Source: Bacteroidales bacterium
GTDB taxonomy: Bacteria; Bacteroidota; Bacteroidia; Bacteroidales; UBA4417
DNA length: 64,000 nt
Assembly: GCA_038249635.1 (NCBI GenBank)
Contig: JBBSDG010000001.1
Coordinates: 2,037-66,036, forward strand
Direction of reading: 5' to 3'
The notes beneath the pieces are model-generated. The model was given only the letters and a program-made list of their open reading frames with translations, did not search any database and was not told where the DNA came from. Below, one piece after another: positions 22,122 to 62,580 of this stretch. The translations under genes were made by a program, and so were the position numbers. The number at the start of each line of letters is the position of its first letter. The stretch's first letter is position 1.

Positions 22122-22155
22122 TTTAAAATCAAACTAAAATTCTTTAAAATTGGAC
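22122..22155. promoter_or_regulatory. Conserved intergenic motif, copy 3 (TTTAAAATCAAACTAAAATTCTTTAAAATTGGAC)
   Basis: It shares TT.AAAAT and the core CTAAAAT(T)CTTTAAAATT with copies 1 and 2. Ungapped identity to copy 1 is 23 of 34, and higher with a 1-nt gap. It lies 154 nt upstream of the SusC start at 21968. Confidence 0.4.
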
Positions 22156-23640: not shown

Positions 23641-23658
23641 TTCTCATATAAAAGTGTA

Positions 23659-37868: not shown

Positions 37869-37914
37869 CTCCCGTTTTTCAATCGTAAATCGTAAATAAT
37901 AAAATCGTAAATTT

Positions 37915-39327: not shown

Positions 39328-39344
39328 AATATCTTAGATTCCAC

Positions 39345-45475: not shown

Positions 45476-46216
45476 TTAAAAAACTTCCAATGGGTTAATG
45501 TCCATGGGCTTTGAATACTTTTCAGGATTTCGAGTAATGATTCTGATGTTTCTAAATTGCCCTGTATATTTTTCTTTTTCAGGTTCATTACCTAAGCTGT
45601 GAATTTTAAAGGCAATATATCCTTTTTTGTATTTTTTATTTATCAGATTTGCTGCCGGGACTCCATTTACCCAGGTTTTTATATAAGACCCAATAGCCTC
45701 AATCCTTATCTTATTCCATTCGCCCCTGAAATATGCTTGTTGTGCCCGCTCATCATTGGCGAGAGTATAAAGCCAATGCCAGGTTCGTCCAAAATCATCA
45801 AAAATACCTCCAGTCCACTTACGTCTTGGTGAGGGATCAATTTTAAGCATATAGCCGTAAAGTCTTACGCTTGAAGTATCAATACTTCTGGGAACATCGA
45901 TACTTCTAAAGAGTACTCCGCTATTGAAAAAACTATCCGCTTTTACTTCCAGTTCAAGAATAAAGTCTGCGTATTTATTGGTTGTGCAAGCAAAGGTATG
46001 TTCAGGAGTGTTCTTCACCATATTACAGGTAATGGCACCTTCATTTACACGCACAACTCCCTCACTTCCAACCACCTTCCATCCATCTAAATTTTCCCCA
46101 TTAAACAGTGAGACCCAAGGTTCGTTAGTATTTTGAGCGCTTACGGGTAAGGCTAATAAAAAGCTGCAAAACACAATCAGTAAAGATTTGTAAGTTAAGT
46201 TTTGAAGTGTTCCCAT
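45476..46216 (-). CDS. DUF1080 (Pfam 3-keto-disaccharide hydrolase family) protein, exported
   Basis: 246 aa with a signal peptide. It has WVSLFNGENLDGWKVVG near the N-terminus and GQFRNIRI near the C-terminus, the hallmark DUF1080 ends. Confidence 0.85.
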   Translation of the reverse strand: MGTLQNLTYKSLLIVFCSFLLALPVSAQNTNEPWVSLFNGENLDGWKVVGSEGVVRVNEGAITCNMVKNTPEHTFACTTNKYADFILELEVKADSFFNSGVLFRSIDVPRSIDTSSVRLYGYMLKIDPSPRRKWTGGIFDDFGRTWHWLYTLANDERAQQAYFRGEWNKIRIEAIGSYIKTWVNGVPAANLINKKYKKGYIAFKIHSLGNEPEKEKYTGQFRNIRIITRNPEKYSKPMDINPLEVF

Positions 46217-47922: not shown

Positions 47923-50562
47923 TCACTTTCGCTTTAACGTCACCACTACATATGGTGTTTCTTGCTCCAAATCTGGATAAATACAGCCATGACCTTCGTT
48001 ATCCATCACTTCGATAAAATACATAAAATCGAATTTGGGGTCAATCTGACTGGCAGGTATTGTTGCCTGAAAAACATCACTTTCTGCGTCAAGCTTCATC
48101 GGTAATGCTTCATAATCCAGGTGTTGATTTACTGCACGATACCGAAGCCTTGCCCATTTAATCCCGGAGGACGCTTTTATGCTTGCTTTTATTTGTATGT
48201 CTTGATTCACGGGGATATTGGTAATTGCCTGATGCTGTATTTGAAAAAGTGCATGGGGATCAGCAACAGCTGTGGCTTTGAAAACGGGAGAAATTCTTGG
48301 CTTATCGGTTTTCCCGATAGTGGTTCTTTCATTCTGAAGCTGTTTCAAACCATCTTCCAGATCACCAAGTTCATCAATCCAATGGCCGGAAAGACGATGC
48401 TTGATACCCATAAATAGAATCTCACGGGTGCCAAACATCAAATCAGATGCATATACATCGCCTGCAGCTTCAACTATTTTTAGCCAGGCATCAATGGCCT
48501 TTTTTTCATAGCTTATCGCATCATCCAATGCATAAGGGTCGTTGGTGCGTTTATAAATACAATAACTTACTGCAGCCGGAATACGTTTGGAATGATACAA
48601 GGCTAAATTCGAAAGAATTTTCAGATCGGTAATGGTCGAAAAGAACTCCTTATTGCCTGATGGCATTAAATTTTCAGCCATTGTAATTAGTTGATTCAAT
48701 TCACTATTGCGTTGTGCAAACCATACACTTGTTGCAGAAGGCAACTGTTTGGTTGTTTCACCACCTTCAGTTAATAGTTGTGCTTCGGTATCAAAACTTG
48801 CAAATTGCTGAATATCGCTACCCTCAGCCATTGCATATTGAGGTAGGTCGCCATAATTTTGTTTTTCAGGCCAGCCACAGGTTGTAGGAAATTTTGCGTA
48901 AGGCGAACATGCAGCCACGATTGTTGGCAATACCCAACTAGCTTTGTGCAAGGCTTCTTCTACAATTGCTCCGGCTTCCTTTCCAAATCGCATTTCAAAC
49001 TCGCGATCCCAAACTTCAGATGCTGTATTAGGATTATAACCCAAACGACCAAAAACCTGAAAGAAATGCCAATATCGCTCGAATTCGTAATTGTAATAAA
49101 CGTATGGTGGATTTAACAAATCGAATGGCTGAATGTTATGGGGTTGGGCTTCCATTTTTGTAGCAAGCGGTTCGTTCACTTCAAAACCTTCCCCATCATA
49201 AAGATGCGTGCTACCCACAAATCGTTGAACATACTGCGGGTCGCCCCAAAGTAGAATACGTTGTGTGCCACCAGTCCACAAACGCCAATGAAGTTTATAA
49301 TTTTTTGGATAGCGGAGCATGTCAGCATACCCTTGTCTGCGACCGAATTGGTTTTCGCGATTAATGTGTGTGGGGTGAAAAGGAAGCCCCATTTGTTCCA
49401 TCCAATATTTAGTGGTAATCCGAAAATTCAGATTAAGATCAGATGCTATTTTAATAATCGATTCAGGCAAATCTTTGGCACGTAAATCAATTTGAAACAT
49501 AGGAGAAGTTGTTTTGAGCATGTGAAACACCTCTGTCCAGAAAAGTTCCATTTCAGCTCCTTTTTTAAGACCCGATTCGCTATGCATGCGAAATTGAATT
49601 CCATCAAGTCCGGGTACTTTCTGTATTAACTTGGCCAGGGCTGCTTTGGTATAATTGGATAAATTGCTTGCATCCAAGCCTTCAACCAAATGATTTTTAT
49701 CCATTTTTGCCAATTCTTCTTCCGTTAAGCCGCCTGTTTGAATTCCTCCGCGATAAATATGGTCCCAAATTCCTACCTTAAAATCAATACCTCTCTCATG
49801 GGCCATTTCAATCATACGGTTAAGTGCCACCAGATTTTTCTCTTGTTCTTCAACTGTCAGATTTCCCATTTTTATAGTTGGAAATCCGTCAACATTAAAA
49901 AAGTAAGGATAACATGGGGCAAGAAAACCTCCATTTTCATAACCAAAAATTAAAACGATACAATTGAAACGATTTTCGGCCAACATATCCATGTAGTTTG
50001 CCCAATAATCTTCGTTGTAAAACCTGCTTTCCCAATATGCACGATTCATGGTGTACATGGATATGGCACGGGTAACAACTTCGGGCGATTCATTAACAGG
50101 AATTACTTCGCTAAACGGATCATTTGCATTTGAACTCCAGCTAATGCGTTCAGCTACATCAAGCAGCGCATACATTAATCCGCGATCGTCAGCGCCATTA
50201 ATTACCCAAACCGGTTTTTGCTGAAATTCTGTTTTCCAGATAGATAATGACTCGGGCTGGCTTAATGTTGGCTGGTTTGTATCATGAGCCAATTTTGCAG
50301 CAGTACCATTACCTGAAGTTAATCCAACAATTAAAATAGCTGTACCTTTTGCTTGTTTCAACGAACGAATTAACTCATAGGAAATGTTTTGCTTTTCCAG
50401 ATTCTTGGTCAATTTAGTCATACCATGTTGAACCGAACTTCCAATTGATTGATCAGTTATGATGGAAACATACGGATTCTGTTTGCCTGCAAACGCCGTC
50501 GAATAAATGGCAAATAATAAGCAAATAGATGATAATGTTCTATGAACAATTGATTGATGCAT
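47923..50562 (-). CDS. Exported 879-aa hydrolase-like protein, family unassigned
   Basis: It has a signal peptide. The N-domain ends in VWVINGADDRGLMYALLDVAERI, a GH20b/alpha-glucuronidase-N-like hallmark. A putative TIM barrel follows (RAISMYTMNRAYWESRFYNEDYWANYMDMLAENRFNCIVLIFGYENGG..., ERGIDFKVGIWDHIY). The C-terminus looks like a beta-sandwich (WARLRYRAVNQHLDYEALPM...FDFMYFIEVMDNEGHG). It is distantly similar in layout to 24667..26964. Confidence 0.4.
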   Translation of the reverse strand: MHQSIVHRTLSSICLLFAIYSTAFAGKQNPYVSIITDQSIGSSVQHGMTKLTKNLEKQNISYELIRSLKQAKGTAILIVGLTSGNGTAAKLAHDTNQPTLSQPESLSIWKTEFQQKPVWVINGADDRGLMYALLDVAERISWSSNANDPFSEVIPVNESPEVVTRAISMYTMNRAYWESRFYNEDYWANYMDMLAENRFNCIVLIFGYENGGFLAPCYPYFFNVDGFPTIKMGNLTVEEQEKNLVALNRMIEMAHERGIDFKVGIWDHIYRGGIQTGGLTEEELAKMDKNHLVEGLDASNLSNYTKAALAKLIQKVPGLDGIQFRMHSESGLKKGAEMELFWTEVFHMLKTTSPMFQIDLRAKDLPESIIKIASDLNLNFRITTKYWMEQMGLPFHPTHINRENQFGRRQGYADMLRYPKNYKLHWRLWTGGTQRILLWGDPQYVQRFVGSTHLYDGEGFEVNEPLATKMEAQPHNIQPFDLLNPPYVYYNYEFERYWHFFQVFGRLGYNPNTASEVWDREFEMRFGKEAGAIVEEALHKASWVLPTIVAACSPYAKFPTTCGWPEKQNYGDLPQYAMAEGSDIQQFASFDTEAQLLTEGGETTKQLPSATSVWFAQRNSELNQLITMAENLMPSGNKEFFSTITDLKILSNLALYHSKRIPAAVSYCIYKRTNDPYALDDAISYEKKAIDAWLKIVEAAGDVYASDLMFGTREILFMGIKHRLSGHWIDELGDLEDGLKQLQNERTTIGKTDKPRISPVFKATAVADPHALFQIQHQAITNIPVNQDIQIKASIKASSGIKWARLRYRAVNQHLDYEALPMKLDAESDVFQATIPASQIDPKFDFMYFIEVMDNEGHGCIYPDLEQETPYVVVTLKRK

Positions 50563-50596: not shown

Positions 50597-51457
50597 CTAT
50601 AGGCTTAGTAAATATTTTACACTTGGTTCAAAAGTTACAGGAGCCATTTCGACATAGAAATTTTTCACTCCACCAATTTTAGCAGCTTCAAAAAAGTCAG
50701 GCCAATCAACTATTCCTTGTCCAATAGAAACCTGCGCATCTTTTGCCGTATTCCAATCGGACAAATGCGCAGAAATAAACCGACCGGGATGTTTCCGGAA
50801 ATAATCAGCAGCTTTGTAGCCAATATTTGCTACTGCTACTTGAAATTGCATTTTCACTAATTCGGGATCTAATGCATCTAATAAGGCATCATAAATGATT
50901 TCATCGCCTCTTTTTTCAAATTCCATGTGGTGATTGTGGAAACCCATCTGTAAGCCAGCTGCTTTCACCTTTTTGGCAATAATGTTCAGTCCTGCAGCCG
51001 ATTTGCGGTAATTTTCAATTGTTTGTTCTTCCTTTGGCAACCAAAAGCTTGAAAGCATCATCTGTTTCATCCCCATTTGATGCGCCCAATCAATTCGATC
51101 ATTAAGGTTCTCTTGCAGTTCGCCCAGGTTAAAATGAGAGCTTGTACATTTAAGACCGTTATCTTCAATAATCTTGCGCAGTTCGGTACCACTTAGTTTA
51201 TTCAGAGGTGCAAACCCTGTCTTGATATAACCCAAAGGAGAGCACATCTCTATTTCCTTGTACCCAAAGGCAGCCATTTTTTTACACGTACCAGCAAGAT
51301 CTTTGTTCAGATCTTCCTTGATGGTCCATGTCTGAAATCCAAATGATTTTACAGTATTTGCTTCAGTGCCTAAGGCAAAGCTATTTTTGCTTAACAGTGC
51401 TATTGCCCCAAGGGCTATGCTACTTGTTTTTAAAAATTTACGTCTAGACGATTTCAT
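50597..51457 (-). CDS. Xylose-isomerase-like TIM-barrel (sugar phosphate isomerase/epimerase family) protein with Tat signal
   Basis: 286 aa. The twin-arginine leader is MKSSRRKFLKTSSIALGAIALLS. The body (GYKEIEM..., GLQMGFHNHHMEFE, YVEMAP) fits the AP-endonuclease-2 / xylose-isomerase-like barrel. Confidence 0.8.
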   Translation of the reverse strand: MKSSRRKFLKTSSIALGAIALLSKNSFALGTEANTVKSFGFQTWTIKEDLNKDLAGTCKKMAAFGYKEIEMCSPLGYIKTGFAPLNKLSGTELRKIIEDNGLKCTSSHFNLGELQENLNDRIDWAHQMGMKQMMLSSFWLPKEEQTIENYRKSAAGLNIIAKKVKAAGLQMGFHNHHMEFEKRGDEIIYDALLDALDPELVKMQFQVAVANIGYKAADYFRKHPGRFISAHLSDWNTAKDAQVSIGQGIVDWPDFFEAAKIGGVKNFYVEMAPVTFEPSVKYLLSL

Positions 51458-51486
51458 GAGTTTAACTTTTAATTTTTAGTTTTTTA

Positions 51487-53067
51487 TTAAATATCTTCAA
51501 GCTTCCAACCGTTTCGATATTCCCGGTTTAAGTAATTATTTGCATTTAAATCATTTGTAATCTTCATATTATCCGCATCGTATTTCAATGTTTTGCGGGC
51601 ACGAAGCGACACTGCATAAAGGTTAATGGCTTCGGTAATTGGCCATGCCTGACGGAAACTGCCAGCAACTTGTTTATTGTTCTTAACACCTTCAATAAAG
51701 CGTTCAACCCCACCTTGCTTTCCAGCTCCTGCTGCCGCAGAAACGGCTTCTGAAAGTTTAATATCTCCCGAAAGGATAAATGGATCGCTGACTCTAAACC
51801 CGGATGTCATTATGATTCCTTTGTCGCCGACAAACATCATTCCTTCATCTGGAAATTCTTTATCCTTCTTGTAGAATTCCTCTGGCACAGGGGGTTTCAT
51901 TCCACCATCGTACCAGATCAGATCTACCGCATTTCTGTTTCCCTTTGCAGGATATTTAAATCGTACTGAAGAGGCATACGGAAATGAGAAATCGTTTTCA
52001 ATGGTATAAGCAGTAACATTATTTTTTATATCGCAAACATGACTCAGATTTGGTTCGATGATCATTGGTTTTTCGAGCTGTAGCGCATCAAAAACGGTCC
52101 AAAGACTATAATGTCCCATATCTGCCATTGAACCGCCACCAAAGTCATACCATCCACGGAAAACCATGTTGGTGTAATGGGGATGGTAAGCACGTTCAGC
52201 TTCAGGTCCAAGCCATAAGTCCCAATCAAATCCTTCAGGAAGTTTTGGCTGATCGGTTGGAATTTTTGTATAGTGCGGCCATACCGGTCTGCGCGACCAA
52301 TTGTGAACTTCTTTCAGTTGACCGATCGCGCCACCGTTGATCCATAGCATAATCTGGTCCATTGATCCATTCGAATCCCAGGGAATCAGATGAGTTACCA
52401 CATCGGTTTTTAATGCCATATCAATAACTTTTCTCCCCTCCATCAGACGATTGGAAAGTGGTTTGTGCATGGTAATAGGAATACCTCTTTTCAATGCCGA
52501 CATGGTAATTACACCATGCAGATGATCGGGAGTCATGACTTTAATTGCATCAATTCCTTTCTCTTTTTCAAAGAGTTCACGAAAATCAGCATAAGCCTTG
52601 CATCCTTTGTAATTGTTTATTTGTTTTGAATGTGCGTAATAACCATCAACAATCGCTTTTCCATTGTCTCGACCACCGGGAATGGTATTGCTACCTCCCG
52701 TTACCCAATTTGGATTACCAATGGTTTTACGCATCAGATCAAGCAAGCCGTTTGGACTCCAATCAAAATACCCGGTAGCTTTCTTTTGGGGATCGCATAC
52801 GGCAATTATCTGAACATCCGGAAGCCTCAACAAATCAGGGAGTTCACGCAAACCCTGGGTTCCCAGACCAATGTAGGCCACATTGATTTTGTCACTTGGA
52901 GCAATGTACTTACTTCCACCCAAAACAAAGGAAGGAAGTATCGTTAACCCAACTGCTGAAGTAGTAATTCCGCCGATAAACTTCCGGCGATCCATTGATT
53001 TTTCAGCACTTACTGATTCTGATTTTGCAATGGGTCCCTTTTTTTGAATTTCAAATTTATCTTCCAT
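51487..53067 (-). CDS. Gfo/Idh/MocA family NAD(P)-dependent oxidoreductase with Tat signal
   Basis: 526 aa. The likely true start is MDRRKFIGGITTSAVGLTILPSFVLG at 52995 (twin-arginine). The Rossmann start is INVAYIGLGTQGLRE. The remainder has the typical Gfo/Idh/MocA glycoside-dehydrogenase-like layout. Confidence 0.85.
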   Translation of the reverse strand: MEDKFEIQKKGPIAKSESVSAEKSMDRRKFIGGITTSAVGLTILPSFVLGGSKYIAPSDKINVAYIGLGTQGLRELPDLLRLPDVQIIAVCDPQKKATGYFDWSPNGLLDLMRKTIGNPNWVTGGSNTIPGGRDNGKAIVDGYYAHSKQINNYKGCKAYADFRELFEKEKGIDAIKVMTPDHLHGVITMSALKRGIPITMHKPLSNRLMEGRKVIDMALKTDVVTHLIPWDSNGSMDQIMLWINGGAIGQLKEVHNWSRRPVWPHYTKIPTDQPKLPEGFDWDLWLGPEAERAYHPHYTNMVFRGWYDFGGGSMADMGHYSLWTVFDALQLEKPMIIEPNLSHVCDIKNNVTAYTIENDFSFPYASSVRFKYPAKGNRNAVDLIWYDGGMKPPVPEEFYKKDKEFPDEGMMFVGDKGIIMTSGFRVSDPFILSGDIKLSEAVSAAAGAGKQGGVERFIEGVKNNKQVAGSFRQAWPITEAINLYAVSLRARKTLKYDADNMKITNDLNANNYLNREYRNGWKLEDI

Positions 53068-53080
53068 AATTTAAATTCGC

Positions 53081-53887
53081 TTACTTTTTTAGAAATTTCT
53101 CCATTGGTACTACCTCATCGAATTCCTTGATTTCAATGTTTCGGTAATAGATCTCTGCGGTTTCAGATTGCAAACCGATAACACCTTCACTATATGGTAG
53201 CTTGGTGGCCATATTCACAATTTTACCATTCAGTTTATGAATAGCGTATTCATTGCCCATGACAATCACCTCGCATTTGTTCCATTTACCATTCAACGCA
53301 TTGAACCTGGAATCTTTAGCACAGCAGTGTTCTCCCTTTTTCAGTGGCATTGTTTTTCCACCTTCTGACGGAAGTGCAAAAGTTTGACCATCATTTGAAT
53401 ACCATTGAATTTGTTGAGCCCAAAAATCTCCGGTATGATTCATGTTTTTTGCGTGGTCGTATCGTATCTGATATTCAATTCCTTTCGGCCAGATATTGTC
53501 ATCAACCACATGGTAATACATACCGGCATCGTACTGAAATACCTTGAAATTATTCGCAATTCCGGTGCCCCACTTGTATTCGAATTTGAAGATGAACTTG
53601 CTGTATTTTTTATTGGTATAAAACAGCCCGTGGGTTAAATTTCCGCCAGTATTCAATTCGTACTCTTTGGGGAAATCCTTGAAAACATGTACCATGCCAT
53701 CATCAACTGCATACACTTTTTTAGCCAGTTCGGCATCGTTGGAGCGGATTTTCAGGTACCATCCATCCAGATTTTTACCATTGAAGAGGCTAACAAAACC
53801 ACCTTTTCCCTTTGCATTTGAAACGGTAAAACTTAGGGCAATTAGCATAATTACAGCAAAAAACTGAATTAATATTTTTCGATTCAT
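53081..53887 (-). CDS. DUF1080 (3-keto-disaccharide hydrolase family) protein, exported
   Basis: 268 aa with a signal peptide. Contains FVSLFNGKNLDGWYLK and the C-terminal YYRNIEIKE. Confidence 0.85.
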   Translation of the reverse strand: MNRKILIQFFAVIMLIALSFTVSNAKGKGGFVSLFNGKNLDGWYLKIRSNDAELAKKVYAVDDGMVHVFKDFPKEYELNTGGNLTHGLFYTNKKYSKFIFKFEYKWGTGIANNFKVFQYDAGMYYHVVDDNIWPKGIEYQIRYDHAKNMNHTGDFWAQQIQWYSNDGQTFALPSEGGKTMPLKKGEHCCAKDSRFNALNGKWNKCEVIVMGNEYAIHKLNGKIVNMATKLPYSEGVIGLQSETAEIYYRNIEIKEFDEVVPMEKFLKK

Positions 53888-53959: not shown

Positions 53960-55486
53960 TTAGTATTGATTCTTATGTTTGAAATCTGAATTTCTATAAT
54001 TACTATTTTTCTTGAGCGGAATCTTCAAACCATCGGTCTTTTCCATCCAATCGTTTAAATCCAGTAAATGTTTTTTAATTAACGGCTGAATTTCAGGTTT
54101 CTCAATCAAGTTGTACATTTCGTTCGGATCGTTTTGGATATCGTAGAATTCATTCCGATCCCAGATTCCCTGATACCGAATGTATTTATATTGGTCGGTA
54201 CGAACTCCAAACATGGTCGGAGTCATGGGATATTGGTATTCCCAAAAATATTCATAAAAAATACGGTCGCGCCAGTTCGTCTCATCACCTTTTAGCAATT
54301 GAATAACGGAATAACCTGGCATGTACTCCGGTTTTTTCAGACCGGCCATTTCCAGACAAGTTGGAGCAATATCGGTATTTTGCACCATTTTTTCAATCAC
54401 TTTACCACCTCTAAATAATTCGGGACACCGCACCAGAAAAGGAACTTTCACCGACTCTTCGTAGAAATGCCGTTTATCGATCAGGCCATGTTCGCCCCAG
54501 CTAAAACCATTGTCGCCCATATAGATCACTAGTGTCGATTCGTCCAACCCTTCCTGTTTTAGGCAATCCATCACCGAACCTACACTTTCGTCTACGCCCA
54601 ACAAAGTTTCGCAATATTCCTGCACCATGGTGTTCATATCATTATTTCCACTGTAAATGTAATCAACACCATGGCAACTGATGCGCTGCGCCGCTACCCA
54701 TTCAGGCCATTTCATCTCACGGTATGCCCCTGTCTTGGTTTGGTCGTAAGTAACAGGAAGCAAGTATTTTTTGTCCTTGTACCTACCTTTATGGCGCTTT
54801 GCGGGAAGAAATCTTGAATGAACCGCTTTGTGCGACAGATATACAAAAAATGGCTTGGTCTTGTCCCGTTCCTTCAACCATTTTAGGGTATGTTCTGTAA
54901 GTAAGTCAGTAATATAAGTTGAATCTTTATAAACTACCTGTTTGCCGTCGATATTTAATACCGGATTGTAATAGACTCCCTGTCCCTTGAAGCTTTCCCA
55001 ATGATTGAACCCTGGACGGGGTGCATCCGATTCATCACCCATGTGCCATTTCCCGAAGAAAGCTGTTTGGTAACCACTTGCCTGAAGATATTGCGGGAAA
55101 TAAGTAAGATTACTAGGATCGGGAGCCTGATTGTCAACAATGGTATGCGTGTGTGAATACATTCCGGTAAGAATAGAAGCCCTACTGGGAGAACAAAGCG
55201 AGGTAGTTACAAATGCATTTTTGAACCAGGCACCTTCGGCAGCCAGTTTATCCATATTGGGTGTTTGGAGCCACGGCACTTTGCCGGTAAAACCAATAAA
55301 ATCGTAACGGTGATCATCGGTCAGGATGAAAATAATATTTCGTGGTTTTACATTCTTATCTATTTGAAGCGGTTTGAAATTCGAATTAGTTTTTTGAGAA
55401 AAACCACTTAGCGGAGCATATAACACGAGTGCTCCCAATAGTAATTTGGGCGTAATCATTATTTGCTTATTATTCGTTTTTAACAA
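53960..55486 (-). CDS. S1 family sulfatase (third member of the paralog trio)
   Basis: 508 aa with a signal peptide. Motifs: FILTDDHRYD and LCSPSRASILTG. It has long runs identical to 29868..31370 and to the pseudogene 5449..6858. Confidence 0.93.
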   Translation of the reverse strand: MLKTNNKQIMITPKLLLGALVLYAPLSGFSQKTNSNFKPLQIDKNVKPRNIIFILTDDHRYDFIGFTGKVPWLQTPNMDKLAAEGAWFKNAFVTTSLCSPSRASILTGMYSHTHTIVDNQAPDPSNLTYFPQYLQASGYQTAFFGKWHMGDESDAPRPGFNHWESFKGQGVYYNPVLNIDGKQVVYKDSTYITDLLTEHTLKWLKERDKTKPFFVYLSHKAVHSRFLPAKRHKGRYKDKKYLLPVTYDQTKTGAYREMKWPEWVAAQRISCHGVDYIYSGNNDMNTMVQEYCETLLGVDESVGSVMDCLKQEGLDESTLVIYMGDNGFSWGEHGLIDKRHFYEESVKVPFLVRCPELFRGGKVIEKMVQNTDIAPTCLEMAGLKKPEYMPGYSVIQLLKGDETNWRDRIFYEYFWEYQYPMTPTMFGVRTDQYKYIRYQGIWDRNEFYDIQNDPNEMYNLIEKPEIQPLIKKHLLDLNDWMEKTDGLKIPLKKNSNYRNSDFKHKNQY

Positions 55487-55566: not shown

Positions 55567-57219
55567 TCAATACCCATCGTTCTGTTGTAGTCCATAAGTA
55601 ACCACATCATTTTGAGGTAATGGCCATAGGCCTTTTTTAGCTTGATAAGCAGCAGGATAGGCCAATTTGCTAATCCTCCCGGTACGAATAAGATCGTAAT
55701 ATCTAATCCCTTCCAGTGCAAATTCTACCCTGCGTTCATGCCAGATATCTTCCAACAATGCCTGCCCGGTTGATGCAACATCAGGCACTTTGGCATTTGG
55801 AAAAGGTTTATAATTAATCGGAACTAAATTGGCATCGTAATCACCTAAAAATGCTCCGAGAGGATAAGTTGATAAACGCGCTCTTTTTCTTACAAGATTA
55901 ACCAGATTTCTAACTTCATCCTCTTTTCCTCCAAGACGATAAGCAGCTTCTGCATTCATAAGCAGTACGTCAGAGTATCTGATGACCCGGATGTTAACAG
56001 GGATTTGTCGTCTTCCTCCAGGTATGTATTTCAATGTAGGTACGCCTTTTCTCAAAGTTTTAAATATTTTGTAGTCGTATTCAGGAATTTTGGTCATCCA
56101 TAAATTTTCATTTACATTCGATTTCATCATAATATTTTGCACAATATTATATCCCCAACCTACAGGCCATGCCTCACTCATCATTGTACATTCCCTTCTG
56201 GGATCAACATCTCCGTTTTGCGAAAATTCGGCAAACAGATTATCTTTAGGCTGATTAAATCCCCAACCACCAAATCCTCTGACTCCCATGCGAAATGGCA
56301 CTTCATTTCCTGGCAAATCCCCAAATGCCGTCACAGACAAGTCGTTTACGTATTGCTGATCAAATACGGTTTCAGATTTATTTTCTCCATCCTGTTCAAA
56401 TACTGATGCATAATTTGGGAGTAAAGTGTATTTGCCTGAGTTGATGACCTCTTTGGTTTGATTGTAAACCTCCTGCCAAAGTGAAGTAACATTTATACCT
56501 GAATATTCAGGAGCCCGTTGCTTCATAATGTCGTTATAAAAATAACCTGTCTCATTCATGCAAACTCTTGCTTTTAGTGATCTGGCCGCACCCTTGGTTG
56601 CACGTCCAATATCAATATTTCCTTTTTCAGGTAACACCGAAATTGCATCATCCAAATCTTTTTTTACAAAATCAAAAATTTCTTTTTCTGTTGTTGATCT
56701 TTTTACTGAAACAAAATCAGCAGGCACAAGAACCTTATCTAATAAGGGCACCCTTCCATAAATAAGTACAAGTTTTGAATAGGCGAATGCTCTTAAAAAC
56801 TTAGCTTCTGCAATGTAAATCTTCTTGTTGTCAGAAAGATTTTCCTGCTTTTGAATTTGATTAATAACTTCATTGGTCCTTGTTATCAATTGATAGAGAT
56901 TCGCCCAATGAGGTTGTATGAGTGCATTCGAAGCTGCGCCCGTAAAGCTGGCCATCTCTTGAAACATAATTCCATCACTTAAACTGCTTCCGCCTTTTAC
57001 AGCATCATCAGTGGGTAAATCACCATTTGTCAGATACAATTGATCAAGGTTCATAGAGCGGTAACACGAAACGAGCGCTTTGAAACAATTCGCATCAATT
57101 TCATAATAGGTGCCTGAGTTTTCACTGTTTATTGGTTCTAAATTCAGCACTTTTTCGCTACAGGCATTTAGCAATAATATCCCTGATAGCGCTATTACTT
57201 TAAATATTGTTGTTTTCAT
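55567..57219 (-). CDS. SusD/RagB family nutrient-binding outer-membrane lipoprotein
   Basis: 550 aa. The lipobox is ILLLNAC. The C-terminal signature is ERRVEFALEGIRYYDLIRTG. It lies directly downstream of a SusC homolog. Confidence 0.92.
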   Translation of the reverse strand: MKTTIFKVIALSGILLLNACSEKVLNLEPINSENSGTYYEIDANCFKALVSCYRSMNLDQLYLTNGDLPTDDAVKGGSSLSDGIMFQEMASFTGAASNALIQPHWANLYQLITRTNEVINQIQKQENLSDNKKIYIAEAKFLRAFAYSKLVLIYGRVPLLDKVLVPADFVSVKRSTTEKEIFDFVKKDLDDAISVLPEKGNIDIGRATKGAARSLKARVCMNETGYFYNDIMKQRAPEYSGINVTSLWQEVYNQTKEVINSGKYTLLPNYASVFEQDGENKSETVFDQQYVNDLSVTAFGDLPGNEVPFRMGVRGFGGWGFNQPKDNLFAEFSQNGDVDPRRECTMMSEAWPVGWGYNIVQNIMMKSNVNENLWMTKIPEYDYKIFKTLRKGVPTLKYIPGGRRQIPVNIRVIRYSDVLLMNAEAAYRLGGKEDEVRNLVNLVRKRARLSTYPLGAFLGDYDANLVPINYKPFPNAKVPDVASTGQALLEDIWHERRVEFALEGIRYYDLIRTGRISKLAYPAAYQAKKGLWPLPQNDVVTYGLQQNDGY

Positions 57220-57265: not shown

Positions 57266-60200
57266 TTAGAAAGTAATATTCAACCCGGCAATGTATGATT
57301 TTGGTATCGGGTAGTTTGCCAAATCGATTCCTGCGGCAAGTGATGTGTTTGAAGCATTACCAGGGGTATAATCACTAATTTCAGGATCGAATCCAGTATA
57401 TTTGGTAACAGTAAATAAGTTCTGTCCGGTTACATAAACCCTTAGATTGGTAAGTTTTAGTTTCGATATTAAACTTTTAGGAAGTGTATAACCCAATTGA
57501 ACCGTCTTAATTTTAAGAAAACTTCCATCTTCAATATTTTGATTGCTCATTTTGAACCAGTTTCTGTTCGGATTATTGATGGTCATTTTGGGCTCCGTTC
57601 CCGTTGGATTATTCTCAGCAGAATAACGATCAAGTCTCTTCACAGTAAGGTTGCTATAATTTTCACCTGTACTAATTCTTGGAGTTAGCATATTCGCGAT
57701 TTCATTTCCCTGGGTGCCAATTACATTAACAGACAGATCCCAGTTTCTATAGGATATATTGCCTGACATTCCATAGGTAAAATCAGGTATGGCACTTCCT
57801 AGATCCAAATAATCTTTTGAGTCAAGAACATGGTCTCCATTTTTATCGGCATATCGAGCATCGCCAATAGTTATTTTTGAAGCATTTGGAAATGCGTCCA
57901 AGTCAATTTCTGCCTGCGTTTGATAAATGCCCGTATAATCAAACCCAATAAAATGCGCTATTTCTTTGCCCACTTCTGTTCTGGTAATATACTGTGGGTC
58001 AACCTGATTATTGATAGCCCCACCCTGAATGTAGCCTTTTGAACCAAGGTCTGTGACTTTATTATTTATAAATGAGATATTTCCATTCAGGCTAAACGAA
58101 AGATCTCCGATCTGTTCTGAATAACTTGCCGATATCTCAAATCCGGTATTCTTCATCGCACCAACATTCACGAATGGTTCCGAGTTGCTCGTATAGCTTG
58201 GAACAGGGACTTGAACAATCATATCTTTCGTATTTTTGATGTAATAGTCAGCCGAAACAGTCAATTTATTTTTGAAAATTCCCAGATCGACACCTATGTT
58301 TGAACTTTCAACTGATTCCCATTTCAAATCAGGATTAACCGTGCTGGTTGGAATACCACCCTGATTAACAGCATTTCCATTGATAGAATAGTACATATTT
58401 GAAATATTCACAGTTGATAAATAGGAATAAGCATCAGCGCTCGATTCATTTCCAACCTTTCCCCAGTTTGCCCTAATTTTCAAAGAATTAATAAAGGGGA
58501 TATTCTTCATAAAGTTCTCCTCCGAAGTCCTCCAAGCCAAACCAATTGAGGGGAAAGTGCCCCATTTATTTTGATCTGAGAATTTATAAGACCCGTCACG
58601 GCGAACAATTGAATTCAGTATATACTTACTTTTGTAAGAATAGGATAGACGTCCAAAAACAGATTCCATGCCAGATTCCCCAACATTTACGGTAGGATTT
58701 CCCCAAGTACTTGCCCTATTGATGTAATGTAGGTTAGGATCTACTGAAACTCCACTCGTTGCAACAATATTGAATCCATCATTCTTTCGATAAGTCGCCT
58801 CATGCCCTATAGTAAACTTTACATCATGGTCAGAAGCAAATATTTTTTCATAAGTCAACAAATTATTCCAATACCAGCCTGAGGTTTCATACCTACCTTC
58901 AGATAACGAACTGGTTGAATTATTTTTTCTAGCATTGATGTAAAAGCTTGGCGAAAAATTTTTTGAATGACGGAATGAATTCGAGTAATTATAAATAGTT
59001 TTAAATGTCAAACCATCTATAATATCAACTTGAAGCCAACCTTTGGTTCCATACTCTAAATTTTTTGTTTTAAAATCCTGTGATCTGGTAATGGCCTGTG
59101 CGACATTATCTTGTCCGTCATTAAACCACATATTTCCCCAACTACCATCAGCGTTTTTTACCGGCATAAGTGGGATGGATTGTAGCGCATTACCAAGAGG
59201 ATCGTCGAATGCGTTGATGGCATCAGAGCCGATGCTGTTGATAGTATTAAATGTTATTTCTGCCCCCATTGCAACTTTCTTGCTAAGCTTGATTTCAAGC
59301 TTTGATAAAATATTATACCGATTGAAACCAGTAAATTTTAAGGTCCCTTTATTATCATTATATGATCCTGAAATATAATATTTCAACCCTTTTCCTGATT
59401 TTCCTTCCAGACCTCCGGTTGCTGAAATTTGATGATTTTGTGTCATACCCGTTTGGAAGACTTCATCCTGCCAATTGGTGCCAACGGTTTTGTTGGCAAT
59501 CGCATCATTGATCAACTTTAGTTTTTCTCCAATAAACGGAGTATTATCATTCGTTGCTGCTTCCTGATACATTTGAGCCCATTCATAACCGTTTAGAATA
59601 TCAAGTTGTTTGACATGATCGAAACTTAAATAGGAATTAACGGCAAACACAGTTTTGTCCTTCATTGTTCCTGTTTTAGTGGTCACCAATACAACACCAT
59701 TCGCACCGCGAGATCCATAGATTGCAGTTGAAGAAGCATCTTTTAATATTTCAAGACTTTGAACATCATTTTGGTCGATATTGTCCATATTTCCACTTGG
59801 CACGCCATCTATAACATACAAAGGGTCAGAGTTATTTATAGTCCCAACACCTCTGATACGTATTTTAACACCATCGCCTGGCCTTCCAGATCCTTTAACG
59901 ATTGAAACTCCAGCAACTTTTCCTTGTAAAGCTTCAACAACTCTTGAAGTAGCTACACCATTCAAGCTCGAACCTCTTACTGAACTTACAGCACCGGTAA
60001 GGTCACTTTTCTTTGAAGTACCATAACCAATTGCCACGACTTCTTCAAGACCTATTGATTCTTCAGCAAGTGTAATATTTAACGTTGTTTTTGATCCGAC
60101 GGCAGCTTCGAGTGTCTTCATACCTACAAATGAAAACTGCAATGTGGCATTATCTGGAATATTGGTAATTAAATAGCTTCCATTGTTATCTGTAATTACC

Positions 60201-60694
60201 CCTTTTGTAGATCCTTTTACAACAACAGAAACACCAGGGAGTGAACCACCAGTTGAGTCGGTGACTTTACCTGAGACTGATTTTTGTTGTTGAGTGCCGG
60301 AAGTTGTTCCTTCAGGCAAATTGGCTTCGGGTGTTGTAAGTACAATTTGCCTGTCTTTAACAGCGTATTGTACTGTGGTACCATAGAAAACCTTGTCCAA
60401 TATTTTATCAACAGTGCTTTGCTGCACGTCGATATCGACTTTTCTATTAACATCAATTAATTTTTCGGAATACAAAAAGAAAAATTCGCTCTGATTTTCA
60501 ATTGCGTCCAATGCATCTCTGACAGTTGTATTTTTCAAATCCAGAGATAGTTTGGTTTGTGCATAGGACTCAGAAGCAATAGCTCCAATAAAAGAAAGTA
60601 CTAATATAAATACTGTTAGTTTCATTTTTAATAAGATTTGTGCCGCACCCGGGAAATTAAACCCAAGTGCATGAACTAGTAATTTTTTTTTCAT
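57266..60694 (-). CDS. SusC-type TonB-dependent transducer with N-terminal STN signalling domain
   Basis: 1142 aa in the ORF track. A cleaner start is MKLTVFILVLSFIGAIASESYAQ at 60625. The STN-like segment is LSLDLKNTTVRDALDAIENQSEFFFLYSEKLIDVNRKVDIDVQQSTVDKILDKVFYGTTVQYAV. A carboxypeptidase-regulatory-like domain, a plug and a barrel ending ...GLNITF follow. Confidence 0.92.
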   Translation of the reverse strand: MKKKLLVHALGFNFPGAAQILLKMKLTVFILVLSFIGAIASESYAQTKLSLDLKNTTVRDALDAIENQSEFFFLYSEKLIDVNRKVDIDVQQSTVDKILDKVFYGTTVQYAVKDRQIVLTTPEANLPEGTTSGTQQQKSVSGKVTDSTGGSLPGVSVVVKGSTKGVITDNNGSYLITNIPDNATLQFSFVGMKTLEAAVGSKTTLNITLAEESIGLEEVVAIGYGTSKKSDLTGAVSSVRGSSLNGVATSRVVEALQGKVAGVSIVKGSGRPGDGVKIRIRGVGTINNSDPLYVIDGVPSGNMDNIDQNDVQSLEILKDASSTAIYGSRGANGVVLVTTKTGTMKDKTVFAVNSYLSFDHVKQLDILNGYEWAQMYQEAATNDNTPFIGEKLKLINDAIANKTVGTNWQDEVFQTGMTQNHQISATGGLEGKSGKGLKYYISGSYNDNKGTLKFTGFNRYNILSKLEIKLSKKVAMGAEITFNTINSIGSDAINAFDDPLGNALQSIPLMPVKNADGSWGNMWFNDGQDNVAQAITRSQDFKTKNLEYGTKGWLQVDIIDGLTFKTIYNYSNSFRHSKNFSPSFYINARKNNSTSSLSEGRYETSGWYWNNLLTYEKIFASDHDVKFTIGHEATYRKNDGFNIVATSGVSVDPNLHYINRASTWGNPTVNVGESGMESVFGRLSYSYKSKYILNSIVRRDGSYKFSDQNKWGTFPSIGLAWRTSEENFMKNIPFINSLKIRANWGKVGNESSADAYSYLSTVNISNMYYSINGNAVNQGGIPTSTVNPDLKWESVESSNIGVDLGIFKNKLTVSADYYIKNTKDMIVQVPVPSYTSNSEPFVNVGAMKNTGFEISASYSEQIGDLSFSLNGNISFINNKVTDLGSKGYIQGGAINNQVDPQYITRTEVGKEIAHFIGFDYTGIYQTQAEIDLDAFPNASKITIGDARYADKNGDHVLDSKDYLDLGSAIPDFTYGMSGNISYRNWDLSVNVIGTQGNEIANMLTPRISTGENYSNLTVKRLDRYSAENNPTGTEPKMTINNPNRNWFKMSNQNIEDGSFLKIKTVQLGYTLPKSLISKLKLTNLRVYVTGQNLFTVTKYTGFDPEISDYTPGNASNTSLAAGIDLANYPIPKSYIAGLNITF

Positions 60695-61989: not shown

Positions 61990-62580
61990 TCAAAGAAACA
62001 AACAGACAAACAACATATTTATTAACAATGAATTATCTAAATTTTGGTGCAAATATTTTAATGCTTTTCCCATGTGATTTTCAACCGTATTTTTAGATAT
62101 TCCCAATTTTTTCGCAATTTCAGGATAAGTTAACCCTTCCTCCCTATGCAGCAGGTAAACCTGTTTCTGCCTCTCCGGAAGATTCGATATAAGATTATTT
62201 ACCTGGTCGTTCAGTTCATTGAATTCAACATCACTAGTGGTGGTTGTGCTTATTTGAAAAATACTGGAATATTTCAGATGCTCTAGATATTTGCTGTTGT
62301 TTATCCTCTTACGGATAAGATCAATAGAATTATTGTAGGCAATTGTGAAAATATAAGAATTCAATAGTTTGTAGTCGACAAGTTTCTCTCTTGACTCCCA
62401 AATCTTAACAAAGACTTCCTGTACAATGTCCTCAGCTTCTGCCTCGTCCTTTAATATTCTAAAAATAAACGAGAACAACTTATGACTGTAATGATCGTAA
62501 ATCTGATCAAATGCCATCATGTCCCCATTTTTCAACTGGGTTAGTTGTTCTTCTGTGATATTGTTCCTATCGTTTTTCAA
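61990..62580 (-). CDS. ECF (sigma-70 family, group IV) RNA polymerase sigma factor
   Basis: 196 aa. Region 2 is EAEDIVQEVFVKIWESRE. Region 4 is LPERQKQVYLLHREEGLTYPEIAKKLGISKNTVENHMGKALKYL. Confidence 0.92.
   Translation of the reverse strand: MKNDRNNITEEQLTQLKNGDMMAFDQIYDHYSHKLFSFIFRILKDEAEAEDIVQEVFVKIWESREKLVDYKLLNSYIFTIAYNNSIDLIRKRINNSKYLEHLKYSSIFQISTTTTSDVEFNELNDQVNNLISNLPERQKQVYLLHREEGLTYPEIAKKLGISKNTVENHMGKALKYLHQNLDNSLLINMLFVCLFL

Follow-up and report, generated by a model that had tools for sequence, protein, structure and literature searches.

A 64,000-nucleotide stretch of Bacteroidales DNA (hereafter, the window) carries, side by side, genes for a DUF1080 protein (DUF1080a), a Gfo/Idh/MocA oxidoreductase (GFO) and a xylose-isomerase-like TIM barrel (TIM). 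An earlier note, made from the sequence alone, had read this triad as a signature of 3-keto-glycoside cleavage. The question raised by the locus is whether the three proteins act together on glycosides, and by what chemistry.

Organisation of the locus

All three proposed ORFs were confirmed on the minus strand, closely packed: DUF1080a (53081..53887; 268 aa, Sec leader), which matches Pfam PF06439 (3keto-disac_hyd/DUF1080) at 1.3e-30; GFO (51487..53067; 526-aa ORF, Tat-type leader), which matches PF01408 (GFO_IDH_MocA, 1.5e-14) and PF19051 (GFO_IDH_MocA_C2, 6.1e-18); and TIM (50597..51457; 286 aa, Tat-type leader), which matches PF01261 (AP_endonuc_2, xylose-isomerase-like TIM barrel, 7.1e-16). 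By the ORF coordinates, 13 nt separate DUF1080a from GFO and 29 nt separate GFO from TIM. The triad lies, as described before, between a sulfatase and an unassigned 879-aa protein. The sulfatase, encoded immediately upstream of DUF1080a (53960..55486, minus strand; gap of 72 nt), is of the formylglycine type, has a signal peptide and matches the Pfam families Sulfatase (2.4e-53) and SGSH_C (3.2e-42). It is preceded on the same strand by genes for a SusD-like glycan-binding lipoprotein (55567..57219; SusD_RagB 4.3e-27, SusD-like_3), a SusC-like TonB-dependent transporter with an STN signalling domain (57266..60694; STN, CarbopepD_reg_2, Plug), a FecR-type anti-sigma factor (60849..61907; FecR, FecR_C) and an ECF sigma factor (61990..62580; Sigma70_r2, Sigma70_r4_2, Sigma70_ECF), which is likely to be the regulator of the locus. 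The triad is located in an ECF-sigma/SusC/SusD polysaccharide utilisation locus (PUL) with many sulfatases, and no terminator-like sites were found on the minus strand between SusC and the 879-aa gene.

The 879-aa secreted protein is encoded directly downstream of TIM (47923..50562, minus strand; gap of 34 nt) and had no Pfam match even at E<5; it scored 58 bits against the NCBIfam alpha-D-galacturonidase model (cut-off 1300). The best Foldseek match of its AF2 model (pLDDT 78) was GH138 BPa0997 (1e-28, TM 0.6-0.77, 14% identity); GH20, GH84 and GH67 structures came next, at about 1e-14. The model suggests a distant GH138/GH67-like fold, which makes the protein a putative glycosidase of the alpha-uronidase type. 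Its family, as yet unclassified, comprises at least 2160 proteins, including one that is fused to a sulfatase. Two further minus-strand genes had been correctly recognised: a second DUF1080 protein, DUF1080b (45476..46216; 246 aa, Sec leader, PF06439 1e-33), which is of the BT3469 type (PDB 4JQT, 1e-49), and a ThuA-like protein (27107..28063; Pfam ThuA 1.3e-25), encoded 23 kb from the triad, whose N-terminus, MKSKSLFLIFFILSFTIHA, is a Sec-type leader.

The oxidoreductase and its TIM-barrel neighbour

Proteins AL1-AL4 of Alistipes sp. and BT2156-BT2160 of Bacteroides thetaiotaomicron form an "alternative broad-specificity pathway" of oxidation, elimination and hydration (bioRxiv 10.1101/2024.03.25.586180; PMC8121099). 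The best solved relative of GFO was AL3 (8TDF), the glycoside 3-dehydrogenase of Alistipes, both with the single sequence (2e-49) and with the family profile (1e-72), and every other structure matched the profile at 1e-11 or worse. The alignment with AL3 reaches the extreme C-terminus, and a YR(D/N)GWKL motif is common to both. The best NCBIfam model was BT_2158_fam "glycoside 3-dehydrogenase" at 281 bits (cut-off 750), a score that puts GFO well below BT_2158 equivalog status. Judged by its sequence, which has a GxGxxG motif (IGLGTQG) and an invariant C91-D92, GFO belongs to a distinct subfamily of ~520 aa, with a conserved insert of ~45 residues (about residues 97-140) and invariant RR, HKP201-203, D316-M-G-H319-Y320 and F424. 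The sugar-binding residues R192, W195 and D248 of AL3 are retained as R260, W263 and D316. The column of the catalytic His252 of AL3 is occupied by Tyr320 in 77 of 80 GFO homologues, with a His one residue earlier; that of Tyr349 is Phe, likewise in 77/80; Gln161 is replaced by Trp, and the EKP motif by HKP. GFO is a putative periplasmic glycoside 3-dehydrogenase, predicted to hold NAD tightly.

The TIM family profile matched AL1 (8TCD, 4e-35), BT1 (8TCT, 8e-33) and AtOGE of Agrobacterium tumefaciens (8BVK, 1e-24), all of which are experimentally demonstrated 3-keto-glycoside beta-eliminases (bioRxiv 10.1101/2024.03.25.586180 for AL1 and BT1; PMC10628242 for AtOGE). TIM retains the metal/base residues H174, H176, H231 and E270. 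The metal-binding Asp of the three enzymes is Q206 in TIM, and Gln in 59 of 65 TIM homologues. The Glu named as the AL1 base by Nasseri et al. (bioRxiv 10.1101/2024.03.25.586180) corresponds to A272, in a column that varies among D/A/N/G/S; both residues named as catalytic in AL1 (Asp211 and Glu272) are thus replaced across the family. We regard TIM as a putative metal-dependent 3-keto-glycoside 1,2-lyase (beta-eliminase) that co-evolves with GFO. The closest relatives of the two proteins (AL3, AL1, BT1 and AtOGE) support the earlier reading of 3-keto-glycoside cleavage in part; the family-wide replacement of catalytic residues speaks against identical chemistry. The analogies drawn to ThuB and DgpA/DgpBC proved remote: DgpA (4e-10) aligns over the Rossmann domain only, and no DgpB/C match was obtained.

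The twin-arginine leaders claimed for GFO and TIM are real motifs. TIM begins with MKSSRRKFLK, followed by 13 uncharged residues, a perfect fit to the Tat consensus S/T-R-R-x-F-L-K (as worded in PMC3383694); in GFO, DRRKFIGG occupies residues 26-33 of the longest ORF and is followed by 23 uncharged residues. The arginine pairs are not chance occurrences, because they are kept across both families: R27 in 80/80 and R28 in 79/80 GFO homologues, and an RRx-hydrophobic motif inside the first 25 residues in 63/65 TIM homologues. At the level of these motifs, we infer that GFO and TIM are exported via Tat, which would fit export with NAD bound, as argued for GFOR and BT2158 (PMC8121099). DUF1080a, for which no Tat claim had been made, has a Sec-type leader that lacks a lipobox cysteine.

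A conserved pair and the DUF1080 protein

A co-directional TIM homologue adjoins GFO in at least 58 of the 66 evaluable loci from Bacteroidota, Acidobacteriota and Verrucomicrobiota, and TIM identity tracks GFO identity across loci; the GFO subfamily is also present in a fourth phylum, Hydrogenedentota. In comparison, a DUF1080 gene lies within 10 kb of the pair in just 13 of 76 loci, and 2 of these 13 matched either window DUF1080 (BLAST E<=1e-8), at 23-27% identity. The conserved unit is therefore the co-evolving GFO-TIM pair and not the triad; DUF1080a is best read as a facultative, lineage-specific addition and not as an obligate third subunit. In most genomes the pair is outside glycan loci and has no conserved transporter or glycosidase neighbour. 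A related locus, L084 (GFO 85% and TIM 88% identical), contains sulfatases, GH43 and the 765/879-aa families and no DUF1080, and in two others (L085 and L086, 87-88% identity) the pair sits among unrelated genes. Since this is the usual situation, the locus context says little on the substrate.

The AF2 model of DUF1080a (pLDDT 87.7) was matched best by Foldseek to DUF1080 structures, including AL2 (8V31), BT2 (8TDA/3OSD) and 8RR2/9FBE, at TM 0.50-0.55 and 16-17% identity; a single-sequence search of the PDB gave no match at E<0.01. The BT2 motif GFQDHG reads GLQSET in DUF1080a, and the column of BT2 His275 holds an invariant Glu. As modelled, DUF1080a and BT2/AL2 have only the fold in common. 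Despite the Pfam name cited earlier, 3-keto-disaccharide hydrolase, the characterised DUF1080 enzymes are lyase/hydratases and not hydrolases (Nasseri et al., bioRxiv 10.1101/2024.03.25.586180). DUF1080a may possibly be such a lyase/hydratase, accessory to the pair through a lineage-specific coupling. A somewhat doubtful but serious alternative is that locus shuffling placed a bystander beside the pair, and that DUF1080a, whether lectin-like, GH16-like or another kind of enzyme, has ThuA, sulfatases or GH43 as its partners in acting on the substrate of the locus. Its orthologues (66-81% identical) are indeed found beside ThuA and sulfatases and not beside the pair: in two loci at 80-81% identity no GFO is adjacent, and ThuA either adjoins (L090, with GH43 and sulfatases near) or is one Kelch-repeat gene away (L091, with TIM, Dak and RpiB genes around), while the 75% identical orthologue of Flavobacterium ovatum is surrounded by GH88, sulfatases, GH43 and KduI. 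The DUF1080-free locus L084, the identity ceiling of 23-27% for pair-adjoining DUF1080 genes elsewhere, the invariant Glu and a report of one DUF1080 protein as an endo-xanthanase/lichenase point the same way. Against this, DUF1080a is on the same strand as GFO and only 13 nt from it; a DUF1080 gene is directly upstream of GFO in two other loci (L001 and L022) and just downstream of the TIM gene in five; the DUF1080 density in the flanks of the pair (~13 per Mb) is several-fold above that of a typical genome (Pedobacter has 10 DUF1080 genes per genome); and 3-keto-glycoside lyase/hydratase is the sole biochemically defined role of a single-domain DUF1080 protein in Bacteroidota.

The pair itself could also be read as a periplasmic oxidoreductase with a keto-sugar isomerase, epimerase or dehydratase, which would act on a free sugar, anhydro-sugar or cyclitol, as IolG/IolE or the levoglucosan enzymes LgdA/LgdB do, and cleave no glycosidic bond, its placement in the locus being incidental. 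The replacement of AL3 His252 and Tyr349 and of AL1 Asp211 and Glu272, and the frequent location of the pair outside glycan loci, would suit this reading, as would IolE being the sole NCBIfam match of TIM and levoglucosan dehydrogenase the second-best solved relative of the GFO profile. We nevertheless consider it unlikely, because the IolE and IolG scores are 25 and 29 bits against cut-offs of 290 and 355, levoglucosan dehydrogenase stands at 1e-11 against 1e-72 for AL3, the three best relatives of TIM are demonstrated eliminases, the His proposed as the AtOGE base is kept, and Tat export to the periplasm is more in keeping with the processing of glycosides outside the cytoplasm than with cytoplasmic-type monomer catabolism. 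Clustering with inositol enzymes, named earlier as an outcome that would speak against glycoside cleavage, was not seen; inositol dehydrogenases matched the GFO profile at ~5e-5 to 5e-6. GH109 alpha-N-acetylgalactosaminidases and GH4 enzymes break the glycosidic bond by NAD-dependent transient oxidation at C3 followed by elimination. That GFO is a self-contained glycosidase of this type, with all steps in one active site and TIM unrelated, is very improbable: GH109 shares the GFO fold as well as the oxidation-elimination chemistry and is among the profile matches (6T2B 1e-7, 2IXA 4e-6), and further catalytic groups could in principle come from the 45-residue insert and the His319-Tyr320 dyad, but GH109 trails AL3 by 65 orders of magnitude and its alignment is confined to the Rossmann region. 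GH109 and GH4 are moreover single-enzyme mechanisms with no TIM partner, whereas the strict co-evolving adjacency of GFO with an eliminase-related TIM argues for a division of labour.

A putative cleavage route and its relatives

The locus probably encodes a periplasmic module, set in a sulfatase-rich PUL, that cleaves glycosides without hydrolysis, by the oxidation-elimination-hydration route, and the best reading of the pair, from its sequence relationships, is an uncharacterised variant of the known route with active sites that differ from those of the AL/BT enzymes. Oligosaccharides would enter via SusC/SusD and be trimmed in the periplasm by sulfatases, GH43, GH39 and GH138-like enzymes. 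GFO, having crossed via Tat folded and with NAD already bound, would oxidise a hydroxyl of the sugar at the non-reducing end; homology to AL3/BT2158 points to C3. TIM, also exported via Tat and presumably loaded with its metal before it leaves the cytoplasm, would bind the 3-keto group on its metal; His176 (equivalent to the AtOGE base His134) would remove H2, and the aglycone would be eliminated to give a 2-hydroxy-3-keto-glycal. The glycal could be hydrated by TIM itself or by a DUF1080 protein, and DUF1080a could also take alpha-anomers. Finally, the reduced GFO would reduce the 3-keto sugar, regenerating NAD+ without a periplasmic nucleotide pool. A pair can suffice: the P2B11 cluster cleaves without DUF1080, and AL1/BT1 also hydrate, albeit slowly (bioRxiv 10.1101/2024.03.25.586180).

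As the earlier note had observed, the three folds of the Bacteroides route occur here in one cluster; all three proteins are predicted to be periplasmic, with a Tat leader on a GFO by far closest to AL3, a TIM closest to AL1 and BT1, and a DUF1080a of the AL2/BT2 fold. Here too, the natural reading would be that NAD is tightly bound and the cycle redox-neutral. The differences from the AL/BT systems are nonetheless considerable: GFO has the ~45-residue insert, HKP for EKP, Tyr at the catalytic His and Phe at the position of Tyr349; TIM lacks the Glu base, has Gln in place of the metal-binding Asp and carries a Tat leader, unlike AL1 with its Sec leader; and DUF1080a, 16-17% identical, has a Sec leader, is not a lipoprotein and carries Glu for His275. 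According to the Pfam annotation of the window, neither a second, BT2159-type cytosolic GFO nor a SusR/DUF6377-type regulator is present, and ECF-sigma/SusCD and sulfatases are found instead; the conserved unit is a pair, as opposed to a four-gene operon.

AtOGE (Bitter et al. 2023, PMC10628242) is likewise a xylose-isomerase-like TIM barrel, in which an HxH motif, H174 and H176 in TIM, gives a metal-binding His and the proposed base, and its beta7 His and beta8 Glu ligands are conserved. The similarity is remote (1e-24 by profile), however. In TIM, Gln206 takes the place of the metal-binding Asp163, a residue that is also in contact with the 2-OH; the partner of AtOGE is a flavoenzyme (GlycDH) and not a GFO, and no Tat leader is indicated for AtOGE in PMC10628242. 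The glucuronide-cleaving cluster P2B11 of a Gram-positive gut bacterium consists of two GFOs and two TIM barrels (Nasseri et al., bioRxiv 10.1101/2024.03.25.586180); its complete cleavage by GFO and TIM matches the pair-only layout of most homologous loci, but its oxidoreductase (8TDI) is just a 3e-6 match to the GFO profile, its host has no periplasm and it is glucuronide-specific. GFOR of Zymomonas mobilis is a periplasmic, Tat-exported protein of the GFO fold with a tightly bound nicotinamide cofactor, and it couples two sugars in a redox-neutral ping-pong reaction (PMC8121099). In contrast to the role proposed for GFO, it works on C1 of free glucose without a lyase partner, and its match to the GFO profile (3e-8) covers the Rossmann domain alone. 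As a whole, this information suggests that the three genes are related, if distantly, to the enzymes that break sugar chains through oxidation and elimination instead of hydrolysis, and form an uncharacterised branch of them.

Gene organization of the locus

Three minus-strand genes, encoding a DUF1080 protein (DUF1080a, 268 aa, positions 53887–53081), a Gfo/Idh/MocA oxidoreductase (GFO, 526 aa, 53067–51487) and a xylose-isomerase-like TIM barrel (TIM, 286 aa, 51457–50597), are separated by gaps of 13 nt (DUF1080a/GFO) and 29 nt (GFO/TIM). The earlier note, a reading of the sequence alone, had proposed these ORFs as a triad; they were found exactly where it had put them, and Pfam confirmed the families of all three proteins, well over the gathering thresholds. 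The window is Bacteroidota-like, with a GC content of about 0.40 and nearly every gene on the minus strand. In the order of transcription, the locus begins with the genes for an ECF sigma factor (61990–62580), a FecR anti-sigma factor (60849–61907), SusC with an STN domain (57266–60694) and SusD (55567–57219), all identified by Pfam, followed by a sulfatase gene (53960–55486) directly before DUF1080a. The TIM gene is followed by the genes for an 879-aa protein (47923–50562), a split DUF362-like protein (46218–47847), a second DUF1080 protein (DUF1080b, 45476–46216), a second sulfatase, a 291-aa protein without a family match and a GH43 enzyme, and then by a cassette of an MFS sugar transporter, a fucose-isomerase-like protein and a PfkB kinase (36651–40742). 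Two further GH43 genes, a T9SS-tailed protein, a third sulfatase, a split GH39 gene, ThuA (27107–28063) and a 765-aa protein (24667–26964) complete this series of co-directional minus-strand genes; DUF1080b and ThuA had likewise been placed correctly. With SusC/STN, SusD, FecR and the ECF sigma factor, and with sulfatases, GH43, GH39 and GH138-like proteins encoded on the same strand, the region has the composition of a polysaccharide utilisation locus. A separate xylan-type locus (5449–21968), which contains GH10, GH3, DUF5627 and two SusC/D pairs, lies upstream, and a hybrid two-component regulator is encoded at 1253–5221.

A terminator scan revealed no minus-strand terminator-like site between SusC and the 879-aa gene, which is weakly consistent with co-transcription of this stretch; the promoter scan, not being suited to Bacteroidota promoters, was uninformative, and only the absence of terminators was used. 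No tRNA was found in a scan of the window. Pfam annotation covered 36 of the 38 listed ORFs of at least 180 aa, the two skipped being short plus-strand ORFs that overlap annotated minus-strand genes.

Three genes of the window appear interrupted, and represent either pseudogenes or assembly frameshift errors: the DUF362-like gene is broken into ORFs of 320 aa and 221 aa, one frame apart; the GH39 gene (28098–29817) into two ORFs with an overlap, spanning Pfam positions 2–274 and 301–455; and a sulfatase at 5449–6531 is without the N-terminal ~140 profile positions. Between the two loci are tandem RidA/YjgF (Endoribonuclease L-PSP) genes (23659–24126 and 24220–24597), the first of which has a signal-peptide-like N-terminal extension, unusual for this normally cytoplasmic family. 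In the ~1.6 kb between the xylan-locus SusC and these genes (~22000–23650), no ORF on either strand exceeds 79 aa.

For the 879-aa protein, Pfam gave nothing even at E<5. Its family has at least 2160 members, and one homologue (P0349) is fused to a sulfatase. In a Foldseek search, its AlphaFold2 model (pLDDT 78) matched the GH138 α-galacturonidase BPa0997 best (E 1e-28, TM 0.6–0.77, 14% identity), followed by GH20, GH84 and GH67 at ~1e-14. The 765-aa protein, a second member of this superfamily, has no Pfam domain and a weak match to the NCBIfam α-galacturonidase model (93 bits; cut-off 1300). Both proteins are secreted, and both families recur in a homologous locus of another genome, L084; they probably constitute an unclassified glycoside hydrolase family tied to sulfated glycans. 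The isomerase of the sugar cassette (470 aa) has a fucose-isomerase C-domain, with the sulfoquinovose isomerase SftI as its best NCBIfam match (113 bits; cut-off 700), and the MFS transporter belongs to Sugar_tr. Because this cassette recurs in L084 (MFS 37% and isomerase 33% identical), it suggests a dedicated route for a monosaccharide freed by the locus.

Conservation of the GFO–TIM pair

With GFO as the query, at least 5796 clusters of proteins were found at E≤1e-10, of which the best 120 were all 64–88% identical to the window GFO, while those beyond may include more distant relatives. When a single genome was scanned for each species, 80 loci were obtained, in Bacteroidota, Acidobacteriota, Hydrogenedentota and Verrucomicrobiota; the carriers in these four phyla are polysaccharide degraders of soil, freshwater and marine habitats, and the closest named relative of GFO is that of a Chitinophagales MAG (94% identity). 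When the flanking ORFs were clustered all against all, TIM was the only family consistently linked to GFO: at least 58 of the 66 loci that could be evaluated had an adjacent, co-directional TIM gene, and TIM identity to the window TIM tracked GFO identity (92/94, 85/87, 64/63 and 45/55%). A DUF1080 gene, as searched with an iterated HMM, was within 10 kb of the pair in 13 of 76 loci, so the conserved core is the GFO–TIM pair and not the triad that had been proposed as a unit. The gene lay directly upstream of GFO, as in the window, in two loci (L001 and L022), and just downstream of TIM on the opposite strand in five. The density of DUF1080 genes in the flanks, ~13 per Mb, is several-fold over that of Pedobacter, for which 10 per genome have been reported; only two of the flank proteins had a BLAST match at E≤1e-8 to either DUF1080 protein of the window, with 23–27% identity.

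The wider gene context of the pair was not conserved even at 87–88% GFO identity (L085 and L086). The exception is L084 (GFO 85% identical), a related locus type without DUF1080, in which GH43/CBM6, a 774-aa protein, GH9, an 881-aa protein, GH10, GFO, TIM, a sulfatase, MFS, isomerase, PfkB, GH43 and more sulfatases are encoded. In two other loci (L073 and L078, ~11400–12450), a GFO gene whose product is ~50% identical to that of the window is followed by a gene for a different subfamily of TIM barrels with a Tat motif, only 17–19% identical to the window TIM. Since these oxidoreductases precede another TIM subfamily, their clade seems to have swapped its TIM partner at least once.

Orthologues of DUF1080a were found in other settings, without the pair. 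One from Flavobacterium ovatum (75% identical) lies among GH88, sulfatases, GH43 and KduI. Others, 80–81% identical, are adjacent to ThuA (L090, 2362–4176) or separated from it by a single Kelch-repeat gene (L091, 7263–10166); the neighbors of the former include GH43 and three sulfatases, and those of the latter TIM barrels, Dak1/Dak2 and RpiB. Because these orthologues lie next to or close to ThuA in other metagenomic contigs, they hint at a functional link between DUF1080a and ThuA that is independent of the GFO–TIM pair. Any coupling of DUF1080a to the pair would be lineage-specific.

Export leaders, relatives and active sites

TIM starts with MKSSRRKFLK, after which come 13 uncharged residues and FALG, a textbook match to the Tat consensus S/T-R-R-x-F-L-K as quoted in PMC3383694. 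GFO carries DRRKFIGG and then 23 uncharged residues; since 25 residues of the longest ORF precede this motif, translation may in fact begin at Met25. The twin-arginine leaders noticed in the earlier reading are features of the whole families: R27 and R28 of GFO were conserved in 80/80 and 79/80 homologues, respectively, and RRx-hydrophobic occurred within the first 25 residues in 63 of 65 TIM homologues. Export of both proteins by Tat is thus predicted from these motifs. The leaders of the two DUF1080 proteins, of ThuA, of the sulfatase and of the 879-aa protein are of the Sec type.

The nearest characterized relatives are the oxidation-elimination-hydration glycoside-cleavage enzymes of Alistipes sp. 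(AL1–AL4) and Bacteroides thetaiotaomicron (BT2156–BT2160). As a single sequence, GFO matched PDB entry 8TDF at 2e-49, and the profile of its family matched the same entry at 1e-72. Residue bookkeeping (chain number + 29 = the numbering of the paper) identified 8TDF as AL3, a Tat-exported, NAD-retaining enzyme that oxidizes glycosides at C3 (Nasseri et al., bioRxiv 10.1101/2024.03.25.586180). The best NCBIfam model was BT_2158_fam, "glycoside 3-dehydrogenase", at 281 bits; because this is below the equivalog cut-off of 750, GFO appears to belong to a paralogous subfamily and would not be an orthologue of BT2158/AL3. The TIM family profile matched AL1 (8TCD, 4e-35) and BT1 (8TCT, 8e-33) over nearly the full length, placing TIM among the homologues of the AL1/BT1 (BT2156) 3-keto-β-glycoside 1,2-lyases, and also matched 8BVK (1e-24), which is AtOGE, an Agrobacterium O-glycoside β-eliminase (PMC10628242). 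The leaders differ, TIM having a Tat leader that AL1 lacks, and this suggests that TIM may be loaded with metal in the cytoplasm.

The active sites of GFO, TIM and DUF1080a were compared from alignments alone. The AL3 set Gln161, Arg192, Trp195, Asp248, His252 and Tyr349 is not kept entire in GFO. R260, W263 and D316 correspond to Arg192, Trp195 and Asp248. The column of His252 (3-OH) is occupied by Tyr320 (Y in 77/80), with His319 adjacent (DMGHY as compared with DMACH), that of Tyr349 (2-OH) by Phe424 (F in 77/80) and that of Gln161 by Trp230, and HKP replaces the EKP motif. Relative to AL3, GFO also contains an insert of ~45 residues (~97–140), in which Y100, D102, W103, W121, G131 and G132 are invariant. 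In TIM, H174 (AL1 H178, AtOGE H132), H176 (AL1 H180, the AtOGE base H134), the β7 His H231 (AL1 His237) and the β8 Glu E270 are kept. Of the AL1 metal ligands His178, Asp211 and His237 and the catalytic Glu272, only the two His are retained: the metal column of AL1 D211 and AtOGE D163 is occupied by Gln206 of a QFQ motif, which is invariant in the family alignment (Q in 59/65), and the column of Glu272, the base according to Nasseri et al., by Ala272, at a position that differs within the family (D 38, A 10, N 6, G 6, S 4). His134 of AtOGE has been proposed as an alternative base (PMC10628242). Because of these substitutions and the conserved insert in GFO, the pair is, as far as alignments can tell, a distinct uncharacterised subfamily with a conserved catalytic constellation of its own, and not a version of the Bacteroides operon changed by drift. 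A search of the literature for such twin-arginine Gfo/Idh/MocA and xylose-isomerase-like proteins with 3-keto chemistry turned up no account of the subfamily.

DUF1080a belongs to its Pfam family at 1.3e-30. As a single sequence it matched nothing in the PDB at E<0.01, and its family profile matched N- and C-terminal fragments only. The AlphaFold2 model (pLDDT 87.7) supports a DUF1080 fold, since Foldseek retrieved DUF1080 structures at TM 0.50–0.55 and 16–17% identity, including AL2 (8V31), BT2 (8TDA and 3OSD) and a "3-keto-glycoside eliminase/hydratase" (8RR2 and 9FBE); the protein resembles these no more than it does uncharacterised DUF1080 structures, such as BT3469. BT2 (BT2157) and AL2 act as 3-keto-α-glycoside lyases and 2-hydroxy-3-keto-glycal hydratases. 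The comparison with BT2 covers two of its eight conserved residues: Gln273 is kept as Q240, and the column of His275 contains an invariant Glu242 (GFQDHG to GLQSET).

Function and significance of the pair

Other assignments were weighed against the kinship with AL3 and AL1. Inositol catabolism (IolG/IolE) was rejected, since the NCBIfam scores were 29.4 bits against a cut-off of 355 for IolG and 25 bits against 290 for IolE, and inositol dehydrogenases matched the GFO profile at about 5e-6 to 5e-5. Levoglucosan dehydrogenase was the next best match to this profile after AL3, but at 1e-11 as compared with 1e-72, and it was rejected as well. The earlier note had named clustering with inositol or other non-glycoside enzymes as an outcome that would count against its own reading; given these score gaps, GFO and TIM do not cluster in that way. 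The same note had related the proteins to DgpA and DgpB/C. For this C-glycoside deglycosidase system (DgpA/DgpB-C, CarBC), DgpA matched in the Rossmann region only, at 4e-10 to 9e-9, no DgpB/C or CGE chain was among the TIM profile matches to the PDB at E≤1e-5, and the cluster has a single TIM gene, with no second subunit as in the DgpB/C heterodimer, so this kinship was not borne out. GH109, the NagA-type GFO glycosidases, gave partial alignments (6T2B at 1e-7, 2IXA at 4e-6) and was not retained. GFOR and P2B11 glucuronide-3-dehydrogenase matched at 3e-8 and 3e-6, respectively. The interpretation in the earlier note is supported in part. Cleavage through 3-keto-glycosides is the best-supported reading; its core, however, is a pair with altered catalytic residues, in which any share of DUF1080a would be confined to certain lineages. 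The locus also departs from the AL/BT systems in regulation, with an ECF sigma/anti-sigma pair instead of a SusR/DUF6377 regulator, and a second, cytosolic GFO of the BT2159/AL4 type was not found, GFO being the only one among the 36 Pfam-scanned ORFs of the window; both the second GFO and the SusR/DUF6377 regulator are dispensable in vitro (Nasseri et al., bioRxiv 10.1101/2024.03.25.586180).

The family assignments, the motifs, the synteny and the conserved residues were observed directly, and what goes beyond them we infer. From homology, location and the precedents of the AL/BT enzymes and P2B11, the following mechanism can be drawn. GFO, exported with bound NAD+, would act on imported oligosaccharides, oxidizing C3 of their non-reducing-end sugar, and the Tat-exported metallo-TIM would then eliminate the aglycone by E1cB, with His176 as the likely base. 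The resulting 2-hydroxy-3-keto-glycal would be hydrated by TIM or by a DUF1080 protein, and reduction of the 3-keto sugar by GFO-NADH would close a redox-neutral cycle.

The GH43, GH39 and GH138-like proteins, the sulfatases, the pentose/deoxy-sugar-type transporter-isomerase-kinase set and the adjoining xylan locus suggest a decorated or sulfated glycan of xylan or arabinan type as the substrate of the locus, and because the pair occurs in promiscuous genomic contexts, this should not be over-read. Deriving the substrate of the pair itself from its neighborhood was rejected, since contexts differ at 87–88% identity and only L084 is of the same locus type. A wider proposal, which we put forward as speculative and rather improbable, is that the two proteins suffice by themselves as a periplasmic "oxidative glycosidase" of a distinct class, very widespread in four phyla, with a His-Tyr dyad in place of the His base, a Gln metal site without the Glu base and a 45-residue Rossmann insert; it would target residues that are poor substrates for ordinary glycosidases, and would have been recruited here and in L084 into a sulfatase-rich xylan-type locus, e.g., for sulfated or decorated pento- or hexopyranosides.

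Finding these folds in such a locus would not astonish a specialist. The oxidation-elimination-hydration route, first reported in 2024, is known from a handful of gut-bacterial operons, and the pair hints at a far larger, uncharacterised relative of that pathway, whose breadth and divergent active sites make it a testable extension; the sulfatase-rich setting is a concrete one in which to seek substrates that resist classical glycosidases. If the pair acts on glycosides, its altered residues would be a second mechanistic solution to the same chemistry, and cleavage of glycans without hydrolysis would contribute commonly to the turnover of carbon in the environment, by a route that at present goes unannotated and that CAZy-style annotation of loci misses.
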